Virus record (IMG/VR): IMGVR_UViG_3300043429_000320
Location: 1-30,946 of that record
Reading direction: 5' to 3' (one strand)
Source: a virus
Lineage: Duplodnaviria > Caudoviricetes
Length of the DNA: 30,946 nucleotides
In this document: in pieces, positions 2,129 to 30,898 of the stretch
How the letters are laid out: each line of letters opens with the position of its first letter
Position numbering within the stretch: the stretch's first letter is position 1
Notes under the pieces: model-generated
Told to the model about the DNA's origin: nothing
Databases searched by the model: none
What the model saw: the letters and a program-made list of their open reading frames with translations, nothing else
Position numbers and translations under genes: made by a program

Positions 2129-2829
2129 GGCCTTATATTGACGATGAGTGGCAATGGCTCCTGAGCAATGGTCGTGTCATGATTGATGTAGAAGGCACTC
2201 TCCTCGATGCGCTGAAGCGTGTCGGGGAGGAGCTTTTCTACGATGCGAATGACATTCGACGTTATAAGACCACAACCATCAAACCAAGTAGTCATGTCTA
2301 CAAAGACATCCCATATCAAACGATGAACATCGAGTTTGAGGGTGGAGTGTCTATAAAAGCTGAAATGCATCCATCGGAGATTTTCATCGGTGGATACAAG
2401 GATTACATGCATAGACTGACACACCTGTTCAATGTCAAATGTCTATTCCATATTGACTGGATGGACACCACTGTCACGACATGCAGTTTGATGGAACTGC
2501 ATGAGGATGCGTTTGCACTCAAACGATTCGTGGAGCAGCTGCACGAGAAAGACATTCCACCGCAAAGTCCACGTATGTACACCGGCGATCAGGTCATCAC
2601 CATGATGGAATCCGGATTGATATCGTCTGCTTATCGATGGCTGGAGCCTAACATTCGCATCAATTACGAATGGCAATCAGAGTTCAAAAAGCGAGTCGTT
2701 TTGCCATCGTGGACATGGAACGCTCGGAAGCACATTGAATCGATGACGCAATGGGAGCGCACGAATCACATCGAAACCGAACTTGCACGACCTGACTGGG
2801 CAATAGGAAAGTATGGTCTTAACGGATGA
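2125..2829 (+). CDS. Hypothetical protein
   Basis: 234-aa ORF with ATGA overlaps at both ends and a GAGGA RBS. Confidence 0.75.
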   Translation: MRPYIDDEWQWLLSNGRVMIDVEGTLLDALKRVGEELFYDANDIRRYKTTTIKPSSHVYKDIPYQTMNIEFEGGVSIKAEMHPSEIFIGGYKDYMHRLTHLFNVKCLFHIDWMDTTVTTCSLMELHEDAFALKRFVEQLHEKDIPPQSPRMYTGDQVITMMESGLISSAYRWLEPNIRINYEWQSEFKKRVVLPSWTWNARKHIESMTQWERTNHIETELARPDWAIGKYGLNG

Positions 2830-3140
2830 AATTTGAACTCGCCTTTGAAGCCATGCGCCATGGCTACTGCATCACTGTGCAGGAAAACAAAGCTCTCTGG
2901 TACAGATACGATCAAGGGATGCAGGCCATACGTGCATACGTGAACAGCCTGTTTATGTCATACAAGCTTGACTTCCCTACTGATCGCATCATGACCGATG
3001 GTTGGCAGGTTGGTGTATACATCGAAGGCAATACACCACTATGGCTTGACATTCCAGACGCCTACGACATCGAGCAGATTATGCAGTATGCCGAGGTTGC
3101 ACTGGAAGAACGAGAACAACGATTAGCAGGTATCAAATGA
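2826..3140 (+). CDS. Divergent DUF2829/Tad2-like protein
   Basis: MKFELAFEAMRHG ... DRIMTDGWQV matches the family pattern MxFxxALxxLxxG ... DxLAxDW; carries a C-terminal extension. Confidence 0.5.
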   Translation: MKFELAFEAMRHGYCITVQENKALWYRYDQGMQAIRAYVNSLFMSYKLDFPTDRIMTDGWQVGVYIEGNTPLWLDIPDAYDIEQIMQYAEVALEEREQRLAGIK

Positions 3141-3385
3141 CAGGTATTGAAGCACTTAAGGCACTAACAGAAGGCAAAAAGATTCGCAGAGAAAACTGGG
3201 ATAAAGACGAGGCAATCTGTTATTCAGCGGCATGGAACTCGTTTCCAGAAACTGCCGGTCCAACAAAAGCTTTTACGATGAATCGATGGAATCGAATCAA
3301 CAAGAATAAACCACGAGATCTTGATTCGGAATTCAACAGAATTTACACCGACTTCCTTCAAGATGATTGGGAGGTAGTCGAATGA
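3137..3385 (+). CDS. DUF2829/Tad2-like protein
   Basis: MTGIEALKALTEGKKIRRENW ... TDFLQDDWEVVE is the canonical N- and C-terminal signature; 82 aa. Confidence 0.72.
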   Translation: MTGIEALKALTEGKKIRRENWDKDEAICYSAAWNSFPETAGPTKAFTMNRWNRINKNKPRDLDSEFNRIYTDFLQDDWEVVE

Positions 3386-23216: not shown

Positions 23217-24611
23217 CTAAACTGCACCCCAGCCACCACCACGACCGACGAGCTCGTCGTAGGCATCGGTGAGCGCGTCGACGATGTCGTCATTCTTGCC
23301 GAGTGGAAACACTCGGAGTTCATCCAACAGTGTACGGTTCCAGTCGGCAGTGACCATGTACACGTTTCCACCAGCGACCTGTGAGGCGAATGGTTCAGCG
23401 CGAACATCCTTCGCTCCAGTGACAGGCAGGATGTTCACCGCGCTTCCGTGCAGGAGTCGAAGCATGTGCATCGCTTGACTCTTACCAGCCTGCCCCGGGT
23501 CCTGTGGAAGGCGCACACGCACACCACGTCCATCAAGTGCAGCTGTCTGTTTGATGAGTTTGTCTCGCTGATCTGTTTCATACTGTCCTCGAACGACGTC
23601 GAGAATCCAGATGCGACCATCAGCATCACGACCCATTTTCACACCGACTGTGAAGTCTCCGCTCCCAGCTGTCGCTGCGAGGTCCCAGGCGCGTGACATC
23701 TTCGCACAGTTTGGTGTGGCGGCATCGATGGTAATGCGTTCGGTCCGGAAGAAACTTCCCTCGCGTGGAGTCGGTCGTTGCTGATACAAAGCGGACCAGC
23801 CATAGTCTCCGGAGTTCGCGACCATGACCTCCTTGATACGTCCGAGTTCCTTCGTGTCGTATCGCTCTGGCCACAGAGCTTCGCCAGGCATTCGCCCGAT
23901 CTGGTCAGACTCCTCCGCAATGGCCGGAAGGTTTAGCACTGTCCATCGATGCGGTTCACTCGAGATTGCACGGCTTGTGATGTCGTCGTGGTGCCACCTG
24001 GTCGAGACGATAATGAGAGCGCCCTTCGGTTCGAGGCGCGTGTAGAGGTCGTCCGTGTACCAGTCCCACGCTTTGTCGCGGAACAATGCGGATTCTGCAT
24101 CCTCGCGACTTCGAATCGGGTCATCGATGATAATGCGCCTGAAGCCCACACCAGTTGGAGGAGAGCCCACACCACGCGCCATGAAGGTTCCTCCCTCCGG
24201 CATACTCCATTCGTCCTGAGCTGTGTTGTCCTTCGAGAGTTTAGTCCTGGACGAAACAATCTGTCTGGACTTCCTGCTGAAGCGTCTCGCGATGCGCTCA
24301 TTGTAAGCAGTAACCAGCACGTTCGCGAACGGGTCTCGCTCGATGCAATAGGCGCCATAGCGCACCGTGACTGTTTCAGTCTTCCCGTGGCGCGGTGGCA
24401 TGTGAATCGCGAGTCTGTCAATCTCTCCGCGCTCGACTGCGTCCAGATGCGAAGCGATGGCGATGAGATGCCTAGCTGTGTACGACCAACCATTCGGAAG
24501 CGTGTCGCGAAGGTAGTCGAGATAGCAGACAGCTGTCTGTGCGCTAGTTACTGTCCGGAGGTTCGGCAGCTGCGGTGAGAAGTTGAATCGAGAAGTTCGC
24601 AATGCGCTCAT
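23217..24611 (-). CDS. Terminase large subunit (start uncertain: 24611, 24644 or 24659)
   Basis: Walker A MPPRHGKT, Walker B IIIDDP, STRWHHDD, RNase H-like AWDLA ... NDDIVDA. Confidence 0.95.
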   Translation of the reverse strand: MSALRTSRFNFSPQLPNLRTVTSAQTAVCYLDYLRDTLPNGWSYTARHLIAIASHLDAVERGEIDRLAIHMPPRHGKTETVTVRYGAYCIERDPFANVLVTAYNERIARRFSRKSRQIVSSRTKLSKDNTAQDEWSMPEGGTFMARGVGSPPTGVGFRRIIIDDPIRSREDAESALFRDKAWDWYTDDLYTRLEPKGALIIVSTRWHHDDITSRAISSEPHRWTVLNLPAIAEESDQIGRMPGEALWPERYDTKELGRIKEVMVANSGDYGWSALYQQRPTPREGSFFRTERITIDAATPNCAKMSRAWDLAATAGSGDFTVGVKMGRDADGRIWILDVVRGQYETDQRDKLIKQTAALDGRGVRVRLPQDPGQAGKSQAMHMLRLLHGSAVNILPVTGAKDVRAEPFASQVAGGNVYMVTADWNRTLLDELRVFPLGKNDDIVDALTDAYDELVGRGGGWGAV

Positions 24612-24930
24612 GGAGAGCTGCAATTTGGGCAGCTGATTGGCCATTGATGTAACGCTCACTTTGCGCTGTGCGTGCTATCGCCTGTAGCGCCTTCAGGCTG
24701 TCCTCGAGCACAGATGTCAGAAGGTCATCGAGTGACTTCGTTGGAAGTATCGTCGAGGTGATGTCGTGTCGACTGCCTTCGACAGGTGCCTTCATTCTGT
24801 CCCGAATCGAGATGATGGTCGTGCGTGGCAACCCACACGACCGTGCAATAACCGAAGGACTTTGACCAGCAATCAAAGCCGACTCGACCTGTGCGAGAAT
24901 CTCTGGATCTGTTGTGTTACCCCGTGCCAT
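24544..24930 (-). CDS. Probable terminase small subunit (N-terminal HTH)
   Basis: ATG at 24930 (MARG...); LIAGQSPSVIARSCGLPRTTI HTH; lies directly before TerL. Confidence 0.7.
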   Translation of the reverse strand: MARGNTTDPEILAQVESALIAGQSPSVIARSCGLPRTTIISIRDRMKAPVEGSRHDITSTILPTKSLDDLLTSVLEDSLKALQAIARTAQSERYINGQSAAQIAALHERIANFSIQLLTAAAEPPDSN

Positions 24931-24934
24931 GATT

Positions 24935-25291
24935 CTATTCTGCCTCTTCCTGGCGAACTCTGCGCCGGTAGTGCATCTGTCCGTGGCACAGATAACACAA
25001 CACCTGGACATCCTCCATCTGTTCGCCACCCAATCGGATGTACGTCAGGTGATGGACATCGAGCTTGAATCCATCCTCCTGACGCTTCCCACACTGCTCA
25101 CACGTCCGACCAGAGCGCTCGAGTGCTTTGGTTCGAATATCCTGCCATCGCTGAGAGCGCATGTACTTGCGACGATAGTCGCGCCATGTCTCATCGATGA
25201 CCGCGCTGGAGGCGCCTATGGCCTTCAGGAGAGAGTAAGTGTTCGCCCATGGCTTCGCCATGACCGACGTTATGATTTTGTCTGTGTCCAC
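24935..25291 (-). CDS. HNH endonuclease (terminase-associated)
   Basis: YMRSQRW...CEQCG...LDVHHLTY...LCYLCH. Confidence 0.9.
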   Translation of the reverse strand: MDTDKIITSVMAKPWANTYSLLKAIGASSAVIDETWRDYRRKYMRSQRWQDIRTKALERSGRTCEQCGKRQEDGFKLDVHHLTYIRLGGEQMEDVQVLCYLCHGQMHYRRRVRQEEAE

Positions 25292-25515
25292 TTGATCTCG
25301 TCCTTTACAGGATGAAACTCACCGAACATCCAATCGTCAGCGAGCATCCATTCCGGATACATCGTCAGTCCCTGGATTGTCTTCGACTCACCATCAGCGT
25401 GCATGACGAACGCCTCGAATAGGTCGCTATAGCGCACATACACTGAGTGTTCCCACGATGCGCGTGTTATCGGTTTGCCATACATCAATGGCTCGATTAC
25501 ATCTGCAAACTTCAT
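25270..25515 (-). CDS. DUF2829/Tad2-like protein
   Basis: MKFADVIEPLMYGKPITRASW ... EWMLADDW; ATG at 25515 after GGGAGG with ATGA overlap. Confidence 0.65.
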   Translation of the reverse strand: MKFADVIEPLMYGKPITRASWEHSVYVRYSDLFEAFVMHADGESKTIQGLTMYPEWMLADDWMFGEFHPVKDEIKWTQTKS

Positions 25516-25763
25516 TCGAATACCTCCCAATCGTCTCGCAAAAACAAAGATGCATCTACAAAGTTGCCGTACTCATAAGTTGACGGGTTGGTAATTACTC
25601 GTTCACCTGTTGTGCTTAACCAGACCATCTCCGGATCCCCACGAACAAACTCACAAACCTGAATGTAAAACTCTTCTTCAGAATCTACATCCATTTTCCT
25701 AATGTCAGGAATCGTCAATTTCTTGCCATCCAATAGAGCCTGCAATGCTTCATGACCGGTCAT
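25512..25763 (-). CDS. DUF2829/Tad2-like protein
   Basis: MTGHEALQALLDGKKL ... LFLRDDWEVFE; ends closely match those of 3137..3385. Confidence 0.6.
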   Translation of the reverse strand: MTGHEALQALLDGKKLTIPDIRKMDVDSEEEFYIQVCEFVRGDPEMVWLSTTGERVITNPSTYEYGNFVDASLFLRDDWEVFE

Positions 25764-26323
25764 TCGACCACCGTCCAATCTCGCGCCAGGACATCGGTCC
25801 CTGTCAATGTTGCGAATCCCTTCGAGATCCATTGGTTGCTCCCAGTGAGCTCATAGCGCATCAGCGCACCTTCGACGAGTTTGAGTTTCCACCGTGCTCC
25901 ATCACGCTGCACAGCTGCACCAGCGCGAATGGAATCCATGATGGTGTCGAATGTCTTTCGTGTATAGCCGACGTTCACACCTTTTCCGCAGATCAGGAAA
26001 TAATCGACGCGAAGCGATGGCTCAGTCGATAACCACTTGTTGAAGCGTCGTGAGTCAATGCCATGTGATTCGACAGCCTCGCGACGGTCGATTCCCTGGA
26101 CAACCATGTCTGCGACTTTGGCAACGATGTCTCTCTTCTGGTCGAGCGTGTGCATGACGTCTCGTGGTGTCGATTCGCCACCATGACCAGCTTCGTTGAG
26201 CCATTTCGAGATGATGGCCCGTGGCATTCCGATTTGAGCTGCTGATTTGCTGATGCTGTGTCCTTCAGCCATCAGTGCGATAACCTTCGCCAGCATCTCA
26301 GCCTTCTGTTCCTTTTTGTACAT
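25760..26323 (-). CDS. Two HTH repeats fused to a C-terminal DUF2829/Tad2-like domain
   Basis: ATG at 26323 after AAGGGG. HTH1 EGHSISKSAAQIGMPRAIISKW; HTH2 QGIDRREAVESHGIDSRRFNKW; then TFDTIMDSIRAGAAVQR ... TDVLARDWTVVE. Confidence 0.65.
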   Translation of the reverse strand: MYKKEQKAEMLAKVIALMAEGHSISKSAAQIGMPRAIISKWLNEAGHGGESTPRDVMHTLDQKRDIVAKVADMVVQGIDRREAVESHGIDSRRFNKWLSTEPSLRVDYFLICGKGVNVGYTRKTFDTIMDSIRAGAAVQRDGARWKLKLVEGALMRYELTGSNQWISKGFATLTGTDVLARDWTVVE

Positions 26324-26339
26324 GTTTACCCCTTCAAGT

Positions 26340-26378
26340 AAAACACCAGGCACTTCATAGCGGGCGAAGTGCCTGGTG
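26340..26378 (-). terminator. Intrinsic terminator after the SSB-like gene
   Basis: Perfect 13-bp stem CACCAGGCACTTC/GAAGTGCCTGGTG followed by TTTT on the minus strand. Confidence 0.75.
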
Positions 26379-26404
26379 CGACAGCGAGTGTGAAAGCGCA
26401 GAAG

Positions 26405-26905
26405 TTACTCGCTGGCGTCTTCACCGAATGGATCTTCGATGTCGTCGGTCTTGATGGTTGGCTGTGCGATCTTCGTGAGTTTCTTCTTTGCACTCACTGG
26501 AGCGACCGACACGATGGCATTCGTCATGTTGCCGCGTGTGTTTAGTTTGGCGTCGACCGTGACCATCCACTGCTTTGCGAGCATGTCGTCAACGTCGAGC
26601 TGGTGAAACTCAGCCTGTGTCAGGCGGCGCCCGAGCATACCGTCAAGAAGCACTGTGAGTGACTGGCGGTCGTTGCCGTATCCCTGACGAGTGTACTTGA
26701 AGAAGCGGTAGGCGTTGCCGTTGCTGTCGCCATACTCTGTCGTTTCGAACGTGAACTTGAAGTTCGGAAGCATGACGTTCGGGTCATCGTACGAAGGACG
26801 GTCGACCGACTCGAGGTTCGCCAAACGACAGACGTATGCACCTGCTGGTGCTGCTTCAAACTGTGAGCTGCCATCGCTGAACGATGCAGATGAAAAGAAA
26901 CCCAT
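26405..26905 (-). CDS. Putative phage single-stranded DNA-binding protein (DUF669-like OB fold)
   Basis: FEAAPAGAYVCRL ... FKFTF; acidic tail DDIEDPFGEDASE; AAGGAG RBS; follows the helicase. Confidence 0.65.
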   Translation of the reverse strand: MGFFSSASFSDGSSQFEAAPAGAYVCRLANLESVDRPSYDDPNVMLPNFKFTFETTEYGDSNGNAYRFFKYTRQGYGNDRQSLTVLLDGMLGRRLTQAEFHQLDVDDMLAKQWMVTVDAKLNTRGNMTNAIVSVAPVSAKKKLTKIAQPTIKTDDIEDPFGEDASE

Positions 26906-27002
26906 ATCTCGATACTCCTTTGGTCATAAGACCACTCTGTTGATGACAGTGCTGGATCAATCACCAATCCAGTAAGTTATTCTCCCAGCACCGTCACGGT
27001 TG

Positions 27003-27031
27003 ACATTACCAAACATCGAACCACTTGTCAA
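27003..27031 (-). promoter_or_regulatory. sigma70-type promoter for the SSB-like gene
   Basis: TTGACA (27031-27026), 17-nt spacer ending TG-g, TAATGT (27008-27003); a second, inverted TTGACA at 27000-27005. Confidence 0.75.
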
Positions 27032-27045
27032 ACAAACTGTCGATG

Positions 27046-27224
27046 CTGTTCCGTGTGCCAGCGTTAGCGCCCGGCACGCAGGAACAGTTTCGACTTATAC
27101 CCCTAAGCGAGCAACATCCAACATGCTCGCAGGGGGGTTTCCAAAGGGGGGATTTTCCTGACCTGTTCCCGTTTTCTTATCCTTAAGGGCGGAACAGGTC
27201 GGGAACAGGTCGCGGGAACAGGTC
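27046..27224. other. Putative replication origin (iterons, hairpins, G-tracts)
   Basis: GGAACAGGTC at 27191, 27202 and 27215, inverted at 27160-27169; hairpin 27046-27087; G6-TTTCCAAA-G6 at 27132-27151; immediately downstream of the helicase. Confidence 0.65.
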
Positions 27225-27230
27225 AAACGC

Positions 27231-29405: not shown

Positions 29406-29657
29406 ATGTCCAAGCAGGTCCCAACACATTACCGTAACCAACCGATTCAGCCCATCGAGATAATCGACGCGTATGGCCTCGACTTCAAGCGTGGCAATGC
29501 TCTCAAATACCTTCTCCGCGCAGGTTCTAAACATGGCGAGGAAAAGACCGACGACCTACAAAAAGCCATCTGGTATCTCGTCTGTGAACTTCACGGCATC
29601 GAGCTCGCAGACGAAATCAATCAGCATCTGTCAGCTCATCCCGCTTTGGATGCCTAG
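29406..29657 (+). CDS. DUF3310-family protein (T7 gp1.7 nucleotide-kinase-related), opposite to the operon
   Basis: PTHY....IQPIEII...LDFKRGNALKYLLRAGSK......DLQKAIWYL is the full family signature. Confidence 0.88.
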   Translation: MSKQVPTHYRNQPIQPIEIIDAYGLDFKRGNALKYLLRAGSKHGEEKTDDLQKAIWYLVCELHGIELADEINQHLSAHPALDA

Positions 29658-29993
29658 ATACTGGCATGTGGCTTCGACTGCTTCCTCCCACGAGTAAGCA
29701 ACGAACCAGAGGTAAGCATCACCGACAGACTCACGGAAGGCGATTTGTCCTGGCGTGAGTTTGTTTTTGCCTGCCTTCATCTCGATCCACATTCCACAGT
29801 GCTGTCCCATCTGGACTGGAATGAAGATGTCCCACACGCCAGCCTTGAGTCCTTCGGACTTCAGTCGACCGGCAGTCGCCTTGCTTCGGTATCCACCGTT
29901 TGGAATGGCGTGGATAGTGTCGAGGCGTGGATGTCGTCCGCCCATCACTCGGCACCAGTTGAAATAAGCAATCTGATGTTCTGATTCGTTCAA
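29631..29993 (-). CDS. VRR-NUC domain nuclease
   Basis: ESEHQ ... HAIPNGG.R....GRLKSEGLKAGVWD ... WIEMK...NKLTPGQ; TTG start with TTGA overlap. Confidence 0.9.
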   Translation of the reverse strand: MNESEHQIAYFNWCRVMGGRHPRLDTIHAIPNGGYRSKATAGRLKSEGLKAGVWDIFIPVQMGQHCGMWIEMKAGKNKLTPGQIAFRESVGDAYLWFVAYSWEEAVEATCQYLGIQSGMS

Positions 29994-30898
29994 AGTTCTA
30001 TTCCTTCCAAAGTCTCAAAGAGCACTTGCGCTTCCGGAAGTCCGCGAAGTTTTTCGAGCGCCCTCGACTGTATCTGCCTGATGCGCTCGCGTGAATATCC
30101 GACCAGGAGACCGACGTCTTCGAGCGAGCGTCCATCGATGAGACCATCGAATCCGAAGCGCAGCCGGATGCACGCCATCTCGCGGTCCGTCAGATGTTCC
30201 ATCAGTTTGTACAGCTGCGCGTAGAGTGCTTCGCGGTCGAGAGCATCACCAGGCTGAGGAGTATCGGTGGCGACGTACTCACTGAAACTCTGACCGTATG
30301 CGTTCGGTTCATCGAGTGACTTGATATCGACACGCTCCATCGAGGTGATGTCAGACAGATACTGGACGTCGAGAGTTTTGAGCTGATGGCGGAGATACTT
30401 CGGAAACTCATCGATGCGCGACTGTATCCACTCGAGCAGTTCCGGCATCGATGGCGATTCACCGTGTTTCAGGACGTATGCCTGGCGCGAGATGCGGATG
30501 TGAGTAATCTTCGCGATGACGTGCGATGGTAGTCGAATCTCGCGACCACGATTCTCGACTCCTCGACCGATGGCCTGTCGAATCCAGTTCGTGGCATAGG
30601 TCGAGAAGCGATAGCCCTTGTTCGGGTCATACCGCTGAATCGCGTGGTGAAGTCCGAGCATTCCGTCGGTCATCATGTCCTCGTGAGTGCATCCACGGCC
30701 CTTGAAGCGTTTCGCGATGATGGAGATCAGGCGCTGGTTGTACGTCATCAGTTCTTCGGTCGCACGCTTGATGTCTCGCTCGGTCCCTGCCTGCACCATG
30801 CGACCTAAGAAAAACTCCTCCTGTGGAAGGAGGAGTTCTTGACCACTGGCGAGTCTACTGGAGCGGTATTGGCTCCATGTGTCGATGCGCTTAGTCAC
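29990..30898 (-). CDS. Phage-encoded RNA polymerase sigma70-family factor (RpoD/RpoS-like regions 1.2-4)
   Basis: LLLPQEEFFL (1.2); NQRLISIIAKRF, DMMTDGMLGLHHAIQRYDPNKGYRFSTYATNWIRQAI (2); SLDEP (3); LTDREMACIRLRFG...SLEDVG....SRERIRQIQSRALEKLR (4). Confidence 0.95.
   Translation of the reverse strand: MTKRIDTWSQYRSSRLASGQELLLPQEEFFLGRMVQAGTERDIKRATEELMTYNQRLISIIAKRFKGRGCTHEDMMTDGMLGLHHAIQRYDPNKGYRFSTYATNWIRQAIGRGVENRGREIRLPSHVIAKITHIRISRQAYVLKHGESPSMPELLEWIQSRIDEFPKYLRHQLKTLDVQYLSDITSMERVDIKSLDEPNAYGQSFSEYVATDTPQPGDALDREALYAQLYKLMEHLTDREMACIRLRFGFDGLIDGRSLEDVGLLVGYSRERIRQIQSRALEKLRGLPEAQVLFETLEGIEL

Follow-up and report, generated by a model that had tools for sequence, protein, structure and literature searches.

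A conserved and recurrent fusion of helix-turn-helix repeats with a predicted Tad2 fold heads a variable array of Tad2-like phage genes

The locus

Tad2 is a phage-encoded sponge for bacterial immune signal molecules, and folds of this kind are known as passive sinks. Here we analyse a tailed-phage genome (Duplodnaviria; Caudoviricetes; IMG/VR record IMGVR_UViG_3300043429_000320) across all of its 30,946 nucleotides (nt), below termed the window, in which open reading frame (ORF) A is predicted to join a Tad2 fold to two tandem helix-turn-helix (HTH) repeats. The record is rated 100 for completeness, and its opening bases recur at its end, so the genome is circularly permuted. The fusion is conserved and recurrent, and it heads a variable array of Tad2-like genes, represented in the window by ORFs B and C. 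The elements are listed here with lengths in amino acids (aa) and model confidence as predicted local distance difference test scores (pLDDT).

25760..26323, minus strand: ORF A, 187 aa, HTH repeat 1, HTH repeat 2 and predicted Tad2-fold domain; ATG behind a GAAGGGG ribosome-binding site
26329..26335, minus strand: ribosome-binding site of A, GAAGGGG, recognised by sequence, the purine run being retained in the alignment of relatives
26192..26314, minus strand: HTH repeat 1, residues 4-44; HTH_23 and HTH_28 above cut-off; three helices, pLDDT 83-87
25988..26146, minus strand: HTH repeat 2, residues 60-112; second HTH_23 stretch; pLDDT 84-93
25763..25963, minus strand: predicted Tad2-fold domain, residues 121-187, a minimal core without helix alpha2; model pLDDT 96.3
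25512..25763, minus strand: ORF B, 83 aa, divergent Tad2-like; no Pfam match, E 1.5e-8 to a paralogue profile without B-type rows
25270..25515, minus strand: ORF C, 81 aa, Tad2-like core gene; PF11195 E 1.2e-4, 23 bits (cut-off 25)

A and B, as well as B and C, are coupled through ATGA overlaps, in line with the original observation of three coupled genes that each end in a DW motif. The motif is indeed present in all three, yet only in A and B is it terminal, as an 18-residue tail follows it in C. A relative of C exceeds the PF11195 cut-off with 29.6 bits. Along the minus strand, a sigma-70-type factor, a VRR-NUC-like gene, primase-like and AAA genes and a 166-aa gene precede A, B and C, which are followed by HNH, a terminase small subunit (TerS) candidate, the terminase large subunit (TerL), the portal and the head and tail genes.

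Architecture and fold of A

Compared with Pfam, A matches HTH_23 at 29.6 bits over two stretches (cut-off 24.6) and HTH_28 at 25.9 bits (cut-off 25). The AlphaFold model holds two three-helix units, H4-44 and H60-112, and the repeats share 26% identity (E 2e-5), which bears out the tandem HTH repeats that had been proposed for the first gene. Searches of the HTH part against PDB sequences and the ESM Atlas returned generic HTH leads only. All segments of A are under purifying selection, with dN/dS of 0.13-0.20 among 21 non-redundant, gap-free sequences taken from the window and its closest loci. A protein search with A recovered 34 proteins from 112 candidates, namely the window's own cluster, 32 further relatives that are laid out alike, three of them carrying a third HTH, and a single fragment. 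Within the module, mean identity is lowest in the HTH repeats (56% and 63%), higher in the Tad2 domain (79%) and highest in the 166-aa and HNH genes on either side (88-89%).

The C-terminal domain is predicted to have a Tad2 fold, as first suggested. In full-length folding of A this domain remained weak (pLDDT about 50-68), and Foldseek matched nothing at E 0.001 or below, a shortcoming that was resolved by folding the domain alone, its model being built from A-type sequences only. The predicted core comprises alpha1, an antiparallel five-strand sheet and alpha3, placing the domain within Tad2 by fold. Structural alignment to ten Tad2 entries gave Z 9.5-10.7 and a root-mean-square deviation of 1.5-1.7 Å over 61-63 of 67 residues, as compared to Z 6.3 for the next-best fold, with all Z scores derived from re-alignment of the top 1000 Foldseek chains. 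Every Foldseek row listed from rank 1 to rank 24 is a Tad2 entry (TM 0.64-0.71), with the first non-Tad2 fold appearing at E 0.44. Top ESM Atlas matches are Tad2-like at 0.86-0.88, taken as a lead only, and lengths of 150-270 aa are common among Tad2-like viral models. By sequence profiles the domain stays below the PF11195 cut-off of 25 bits (15.8 bits, E 0.021), its own profile reaches PDB sequences weakly (E 0.13, and 0.006-0.09), and paralogue profiles lacking A-type rows score it at E 0.1-0.26.

When the A-domain profile was run against 1.84 billion representative proteins, 12 matches were found, among them two fragments and two spurious giants (3,613 and 7,449 aa) that were dropped. Of the remaining eight, two are stand-alone and six have N-terminal extensions, with Pfam HTH matches in P0043, P0044 and P0050 and an HTH-like appearance only by eye in P0047, P0048 and P0049. 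The 66-aa stand-alone protein P0046 matches the A-domain profile at E 5e-14 and passes the PF11195 cut-off with 26.9 bits.

Recurrence of the fusion and the swappable slot

For genomic comparison the best 80 of 104 viral loci with a relative of A were used, many of which are near-copies. As far as these 80 contigs extend, A stands immediately after the 166-aa gene and ahead of C, HNH and the terminase genes, with three genes between A and TerL in most loci; the 166-aa gene is kept upstream of A wherever the contig extends there. A second phage lineage (34 loci) carries a one-HTH relative of A after the equivalent gene and upstream of TerS/TerL, and a third group (11 loci) has HTH-less A-type versions. 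The A-type domain is thus found with 0, 1, 2 or 3 HTHs, stand-alone forms without HTH being P0046, P0036 and L152:2959-3204. Among 37 local Tad2-like domains it forms one supported branch (95/96), in a tree of short, divergent domains from which solved Tad2 proteins are absent and whose root serves display only. At L152:3718-4116 an HTH is joined to a Tad2-like domain outside this branch, which suggests an independent fusion. The surrounding 1.4 kb (L152:2959-4366) hold a stand-alone A-type domain, two PF11195-passing genes and the HTH-Tad2 fusion of the other domain type.

The genes downstream of A run into HNH, TerS and TerL as originally described, and a C match accompanies A in 80/80 loci. 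B as a fixed operon member did not hold, however, as it is found in 6/80 loci. The contigs of 76/80 loci extend to HNH, the remaining four stopping at the contig edge. C alone follows A in 58/76 (57 by pattern plus L030, where the pattern missed a C), and the slot between A and C is filled in 18/76: by a 66-aa Tad2-like gene in 10, B in 4, another paralogue in 1, two paralogues in 1 and an unrelated 97-aa gene in 2. The last (L003:6561-6854 and L004:1490-1783) has no Tad2 signature and is by its position a candidate anti-defence gene. Each insert begins at the stop of the preceding gene and the DW-coding ends are alike, a combination that suggests exchange by recombination. One metatranscriptome contig skips 25517-25769 and equals the B-less form of the DNA loci; this material, contigs only from 4 of 24 runs, cannot show transcription, strand or read-through. 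A second variable slot lies between HNH and TerS (L005, L059-L061), where an extra gene is 30-33% identical to window 2826-3140.

Tad2-like genes also occur outside the array, and the window carries a fourth one in the early region:

3137..3385, plus strand: ORF D, 82 aa, Tad2-like; PF11195 37.5 bits, above cut-off

Genes 98-100% identical to D are found elsewhere among viral contigs, the one-HTH lineage (L084) being one source, and such near-identity suggests exchange between lineages with a common host. Ten whole or near-whole records hold 2 to 6 Tad2-like domains per genome (the sixth, in G001, is weak), and five further records give 2 to 4 PF11195 matches each. Two plus-strand ORFs that look Tad2-like by eye were left uncounted: 2826-3140 reaches only E 0.004-0.2 to local profiles and has no PF11195 match, and 2125-2829 has no match. 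In G001, L088:1263-3428 holds four adjacent, very divergent Tad2-like genes with a stand-alone A-type domain upstream.

Pocket residues and self-association

SPO1 Tad2 grips gcADPR via W25, W73, N26, D79 and T78, in a pocket formed by alpha1 and beta4-alpha3 (10.1101/2023.05.01.538930), and binding is markedly reduced in HgmTad2 W21A/N22A (PMC10680739). The intradimer pocket for cyclic dinucleotides (CDNs) is formed almost wholly by the beta2-beta5 insertion, which follows beta2 and spans 32-72 in HgmTad2 and 36-59 in SPO1 (PMC10680739). A carries Ala143, Arg144 and Ala171 at the equivalents of W25, N26 and W73, which were assigned by counting along the 8SME sequence with the conserved Arg and the DW motif as anchors. 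These positions are Ala/Gly/Ser, Arg and Ala in 80/80 loci, with no W or N, and the three contacts are also gone in 34/34 rows of the wider subfamily. The D79 equivalent is kept in 80/80 loci and that of T78 in 35/80. Moreover, the second-pocket insertion is shrunk to a short turn in the model of A. The proposal that A senses host second messengers is therefore not favoured, and by its pocket residues A falls outside the gcADPR-sponge class, as judged from sequence. R140, Y157, D177, D182 and W183 are invariant in 34/34 rows, and R144 is found in 30/34.

The stand-alone paralogues had been suggested to act as sponges or partner subunits. C keeps the W25 equivalent only, B has none, and neither has T78 or D79; hence both are without a full pocket, and B is unlikely to be an obligate partner of A because it is accessory. 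D retains the W25, T78 and D79 equivalents, with N26 replaced by Asp and W73 by Phe, and would by these residues be the best sponge candidate of this genome. Across local paralogues, W25 is found in 16/28 representatives and the WN pair in 2/28, while an ungapped count gave W73 in 0/27.

Self-association of the domain through alpha1 and the beta4-alpha3 segment is predicted from models. With four copies of A's domain the pairing score was 0.64, against 0.00 for the best of three controls; the pairing mark is reached by 20/30 proteins solved as pairs and 1/23 single chains, rates that apply only roughly here. Contact agreement between runs was at least 96% and partner pLDDT at least 86. The confident interface joins only two of the four copies and takes in the small residues Ala171 and Gly175. 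Likeness to solved Tad2 complexes may account for the pass. As the gcADPR pocket sits on the Tad2 interface, that of A may represent either a plain dimer surface or one for a changed ligand.

Transcription signals

The region between the 166-aa gene and A, and that upstream of the former, contain the following elements.

27003..27031, minus strand: predicted host-type promoter, TTGACA-17 nt-TAATGT, upstream of the 166-aa gene and about 680 nt before A
26343..26379, minus strand: intrinsic-terminator-like hairpin, 15 pairs, 19 nt before the ATG of A
26379..26390, minus strand: motif ACTCGYTGWC, directly 5' of the hairpin; 73/74 loci, single exact copy in the window

A terminator close before the ATG had been noted, without a promoter in between. 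Both points stand, in that the hairpin ends 19 nt from the start and no promoter-like site was found between hairpin and ATG, but a conserved promoter is present upstream of the preceding gene: TTGACA-17/18-TAnnnT occurs in 65/65 loci with 170 nt of upstream sequence. The site at 27003-27031, missed by the consensus scan, is the predicted promoter closest to the A operon. Since none lies directly before A, transcription likely enters the operon by read-through, or else from a phage-sigma-factor promoter that escapes consensus scans.

The U-tract of the hairpin is interrupted (UGUUUUACUU). In an alignment of 18 relatives, a deliberately diverse subset of 40 distinct intergenic sequences, pairing in its 12-pair stem reaches 99.5%, with both sides altered in 4 of the pairs, as compared to 29-47% pairing in slid controls, a comparison that leans in favour of the hairpin since the structure was drawn from the same sequences. 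Rfam gave no match in the window. The adjoining ACTCGYTGWC motif is a candidate site for a read-through factor.

HTH alleles of A were compared with TerS, sigma, hairpin, iterons and promoter palindromes, and no specific co-variation was found, with the hairpin pattern missing 6 of 74 rows. Two of the three binding sites suggested beforehand, at 26340-26400 (the hairpin) and 570-600 (a palindrome), do not track the HTH alleles. The palindrome at 575-594 is common to different A alleles and adjoins a conserved Cro-like gene (360-557), the product of which we consider a likelier binder than A. Divergent TTGACA promoters at 564-606 overlap this GTTGACA-N5-TGTCAAC palindrome beside the Cro-like HTH gene, with a further TGTCAAC half-site lying across part of the promoter at 27003.

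Discussion

Architecture, conservation, loss of pocket residues, gene order and the swappable slot form the basis of our preferred reading, to which we assign a probability of about 0.5: A is a dimeric DNA-binding regulator with a remodelled minimal Tad2 fold, heading the late operon. The Tad2-fold domain likely pairs A subunits, and A likely regulates the late (packaging and virion) operon that it heads, probably without gating by gcADPR or cyclic dinucleotides. Transcription would begin at the host-type promoter at 27031-27003 and mostly halt at the hairpin, with A, the Tad2-like genes and the packaging genes being reached by read-through or a later switch involving A. B, C and the other slot genes likely constitute a fast-changing anti-defence cassette array, the members of which would be exchanged by recombination at common DW-coding ends overlapping the next start codon.

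Several observations weigh against this proposal. Most puzzling is that no co-varying site was found for the divergent HTHs among the nearby elements compared; very different HTH alleles have hairpin loop types, iteron types and promoter palindromes in common. The phage's own sigma factor could account for late transcription without A, and in L126 the fusion gene overlaps the preceding gene, leaving no intergenic room for a terminator. HTH-less A-type domains imply that the domain has some use beyond pairing DNA-binding domains, and the invariant R140, Y157, D177, D182 and W183, together with R144, could mark a ligand surface. Finally, the pocket equivalents were obtained by counting along the sequence, not from superposition.

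Known Tad2 sponges (PF11195, formerly DUF2829) offer the closest comparison, including SPO1 gp34.65 (8SME/8SMF/8SMG/8WJE), HgmTad2/AcrIIA7 (8KBI), MoTad2 (9EIB, 8V3E) and SptTad2 (8WJD). A resembles them in its predicted core, D-x-L-A-x-D-W motif, predicted self-association and phage origin, and differs by the fused tandem HTHs, the missing alpha2 insertion, the replaced W25/N26/W73 and a score below the Pfam cut-off. The sponges are homotetramers (dimers of dimers), whereas models of A's domain yield a confident two-copy interface only. Tad2 is also the fused partner in Tad2-Acb4 and Tad2-Sequestin (PF21825), the described fusions, which combine it with other sponges (10.1101/2025.07.12.664507), in contrast to the DNA-binding domain of A. 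'HTH' is absent from the main text of that study (10.1101/2025.07.12.664507), and a 2026 review (PMC13712596) contains neither 'fused' nor 'transcription'. No HTH-Tad2 fusion was found in the literature covered, outside of which lie most subscription papers and the preprint homologue tables, which may list such fusions uncommented.

Foremost among the alternatives, and unlikely in our view, is that A is a ligand-gated regulator with a remodelled pocket that binds another host nucleotide, thereby switching DNA binding and late-gene timing. Such a role is consistent with the supported A-type branch (95/96) and its invariant R140, Y157 and D177, with conservation of the domain at 0, 1, 2 or 3 HTHs and the use of a non-A-type domain by the second fusion (L152:3718-4116), and with a predicted interface made of the very elements, alpha1 and beta4-alpha3, that form the gcADPR pocket. 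Tad2 homologues furthermore bind a broad range of ligands (gcADPR, His-ADPR, N7-cADPR, cUMP, cCMP and CDNs), and 19/84 tested sponges (Acb2, Tad1, Tad2) blocked none of seven systems (10.1101/2025.08.24.671296). However, neither pocket tryptophan nor the asparagine persists in any of the 80 loci, the second-pocket insertion is absent, and no target site was found. It is similarly a tentative and improbable notion that the A-type branch evolved a new nucleotide pocket (R140, R144, Y157, D177) for a further host signal and, joined to one to three HTHs, times packaging and virion genes or terminator read-through by the immune state of the host. Should A bind a nucleotide, it would represent a transcription factor by which a phage reads host immune signals, of which we found no described case in the literature, and if the new-pocket idea is right, the swappable Tad2-like array would amount to a library of sponges for uncharacterised signals.

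Doubtful, and ranked behind ligand gating, is a two-job protein, in which the Tad2 domain serves anti-defence and the HTHs autorepress or tether without an allosteric link. AcrIIA15 sets the precedent, combining an HTH with an anti-defence domain and autorepression (PMC10901769), and is by analogy the nearest functional counterpart of A: both have an N-terminal HTH and a C-terminal domain of the anti-defence repertoire. The position of A at the head of a Tad2-like array, the existence of stand-alone A-type domains and the freely varying HTH number fit this idea. Yet AcrIIA15 dimerises by its N-terminal domain and binds its own promoter, whereas A is predicted to pair C-terminally and has no promoter directly before it to repress; the upstream promoter is common to all HTH alleles, and the known pocket is lost.

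Least probable is a packaging or replication accessory with low-specificity DNA binding like TerS HTHs and oligomerised by the Tad2 fold, for although the best PHROG matches of A's HTH are terminase small subunits (phrog_1482 at E 6.6e-5, phrog_4102, phrog_3218), Sf6_terminase matches weakly (E 0.048), A shares weakly similar HTH repeats and the HNH and TerL neighbourhood with Sf6-like TerS (phrog_1482), it lies between replication and packaging genes, and binding of low specificity would account for HTHs that diverge while no site co-varies with them, the PHROG matches span the generic HTH only, A has a Tad2-fold C-terminus and no recognised oligomerisation helices or TerL-binding tail, a separate TerS candidate adjoins TerL with alleles independent of A's HTHs (Spearman 0.15), and the L126 lineage has a typical TerS-like gene plus the fusion.

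Returning to the dimeric regulator, a Tad2 fold repeatedly wired to DNA-binding domains would represent reuse of the fold in phage gene control. Each genome of these phages encodes 2 to 6 highly divergent Tad2-like domains. Almost none of them retains the known pocket, and the slots that they occupy vary between near-identical phages. Sponges have been used for capturing new immune signals (10.1101/2025.08.24.671296), so the 67-residue domain of A, its stand-alone relatives, C and D could serve as small baits in such a search.

Further features of the genome

The genes flanking the module, all on the minus strand, were assigned as follows.

26405..26905, minus strand: 166-aa replication-module gene; weak NCBIfam NF046043 (NGO0469 family) match, E 4e-6, below cut-off
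24935..25291, minus strand: HNH endonuclease, first packaging-module gene; PF01844 above cut-off
24544..24930, minus strand: terminase small-subunit candidate, HTH-like, by position; weak HTH and phrog_756 matches only
23217..24659, minus strand: terminase large subunit, start codon uncertain; Terminase_6N and 6C above cut-off
29990-30898, minus strand: sigma-70-type factor, regions 2 and 4; a full factor in a 31-kb phage

No close cultured phage was found. A single genome-collection match, the contig L109 in the bin of an uncultured archaeon, is probably a mis-binned phage contig and was not used as a host clue. The TerS candidate falls into two allele groups (about 60% versus 85-100% identity to the window gene) that assort independently of their neighbours, and the sigma factor is about 60% identical in many relatives versus 80-90% for its neighbour genes. 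A DUF3310 gene (29406-29657, plus strand) is reversed inside the minus-strand replication operon, as in most relatives, and is missing in L023. After the AAA gene, the conserved intergenic region 26906-27230 (325 nt) contains three short direct repeats, an inverted copy and several hairpins, with two repeat types among relatives, and looks like a replication origin or a structured RNA.

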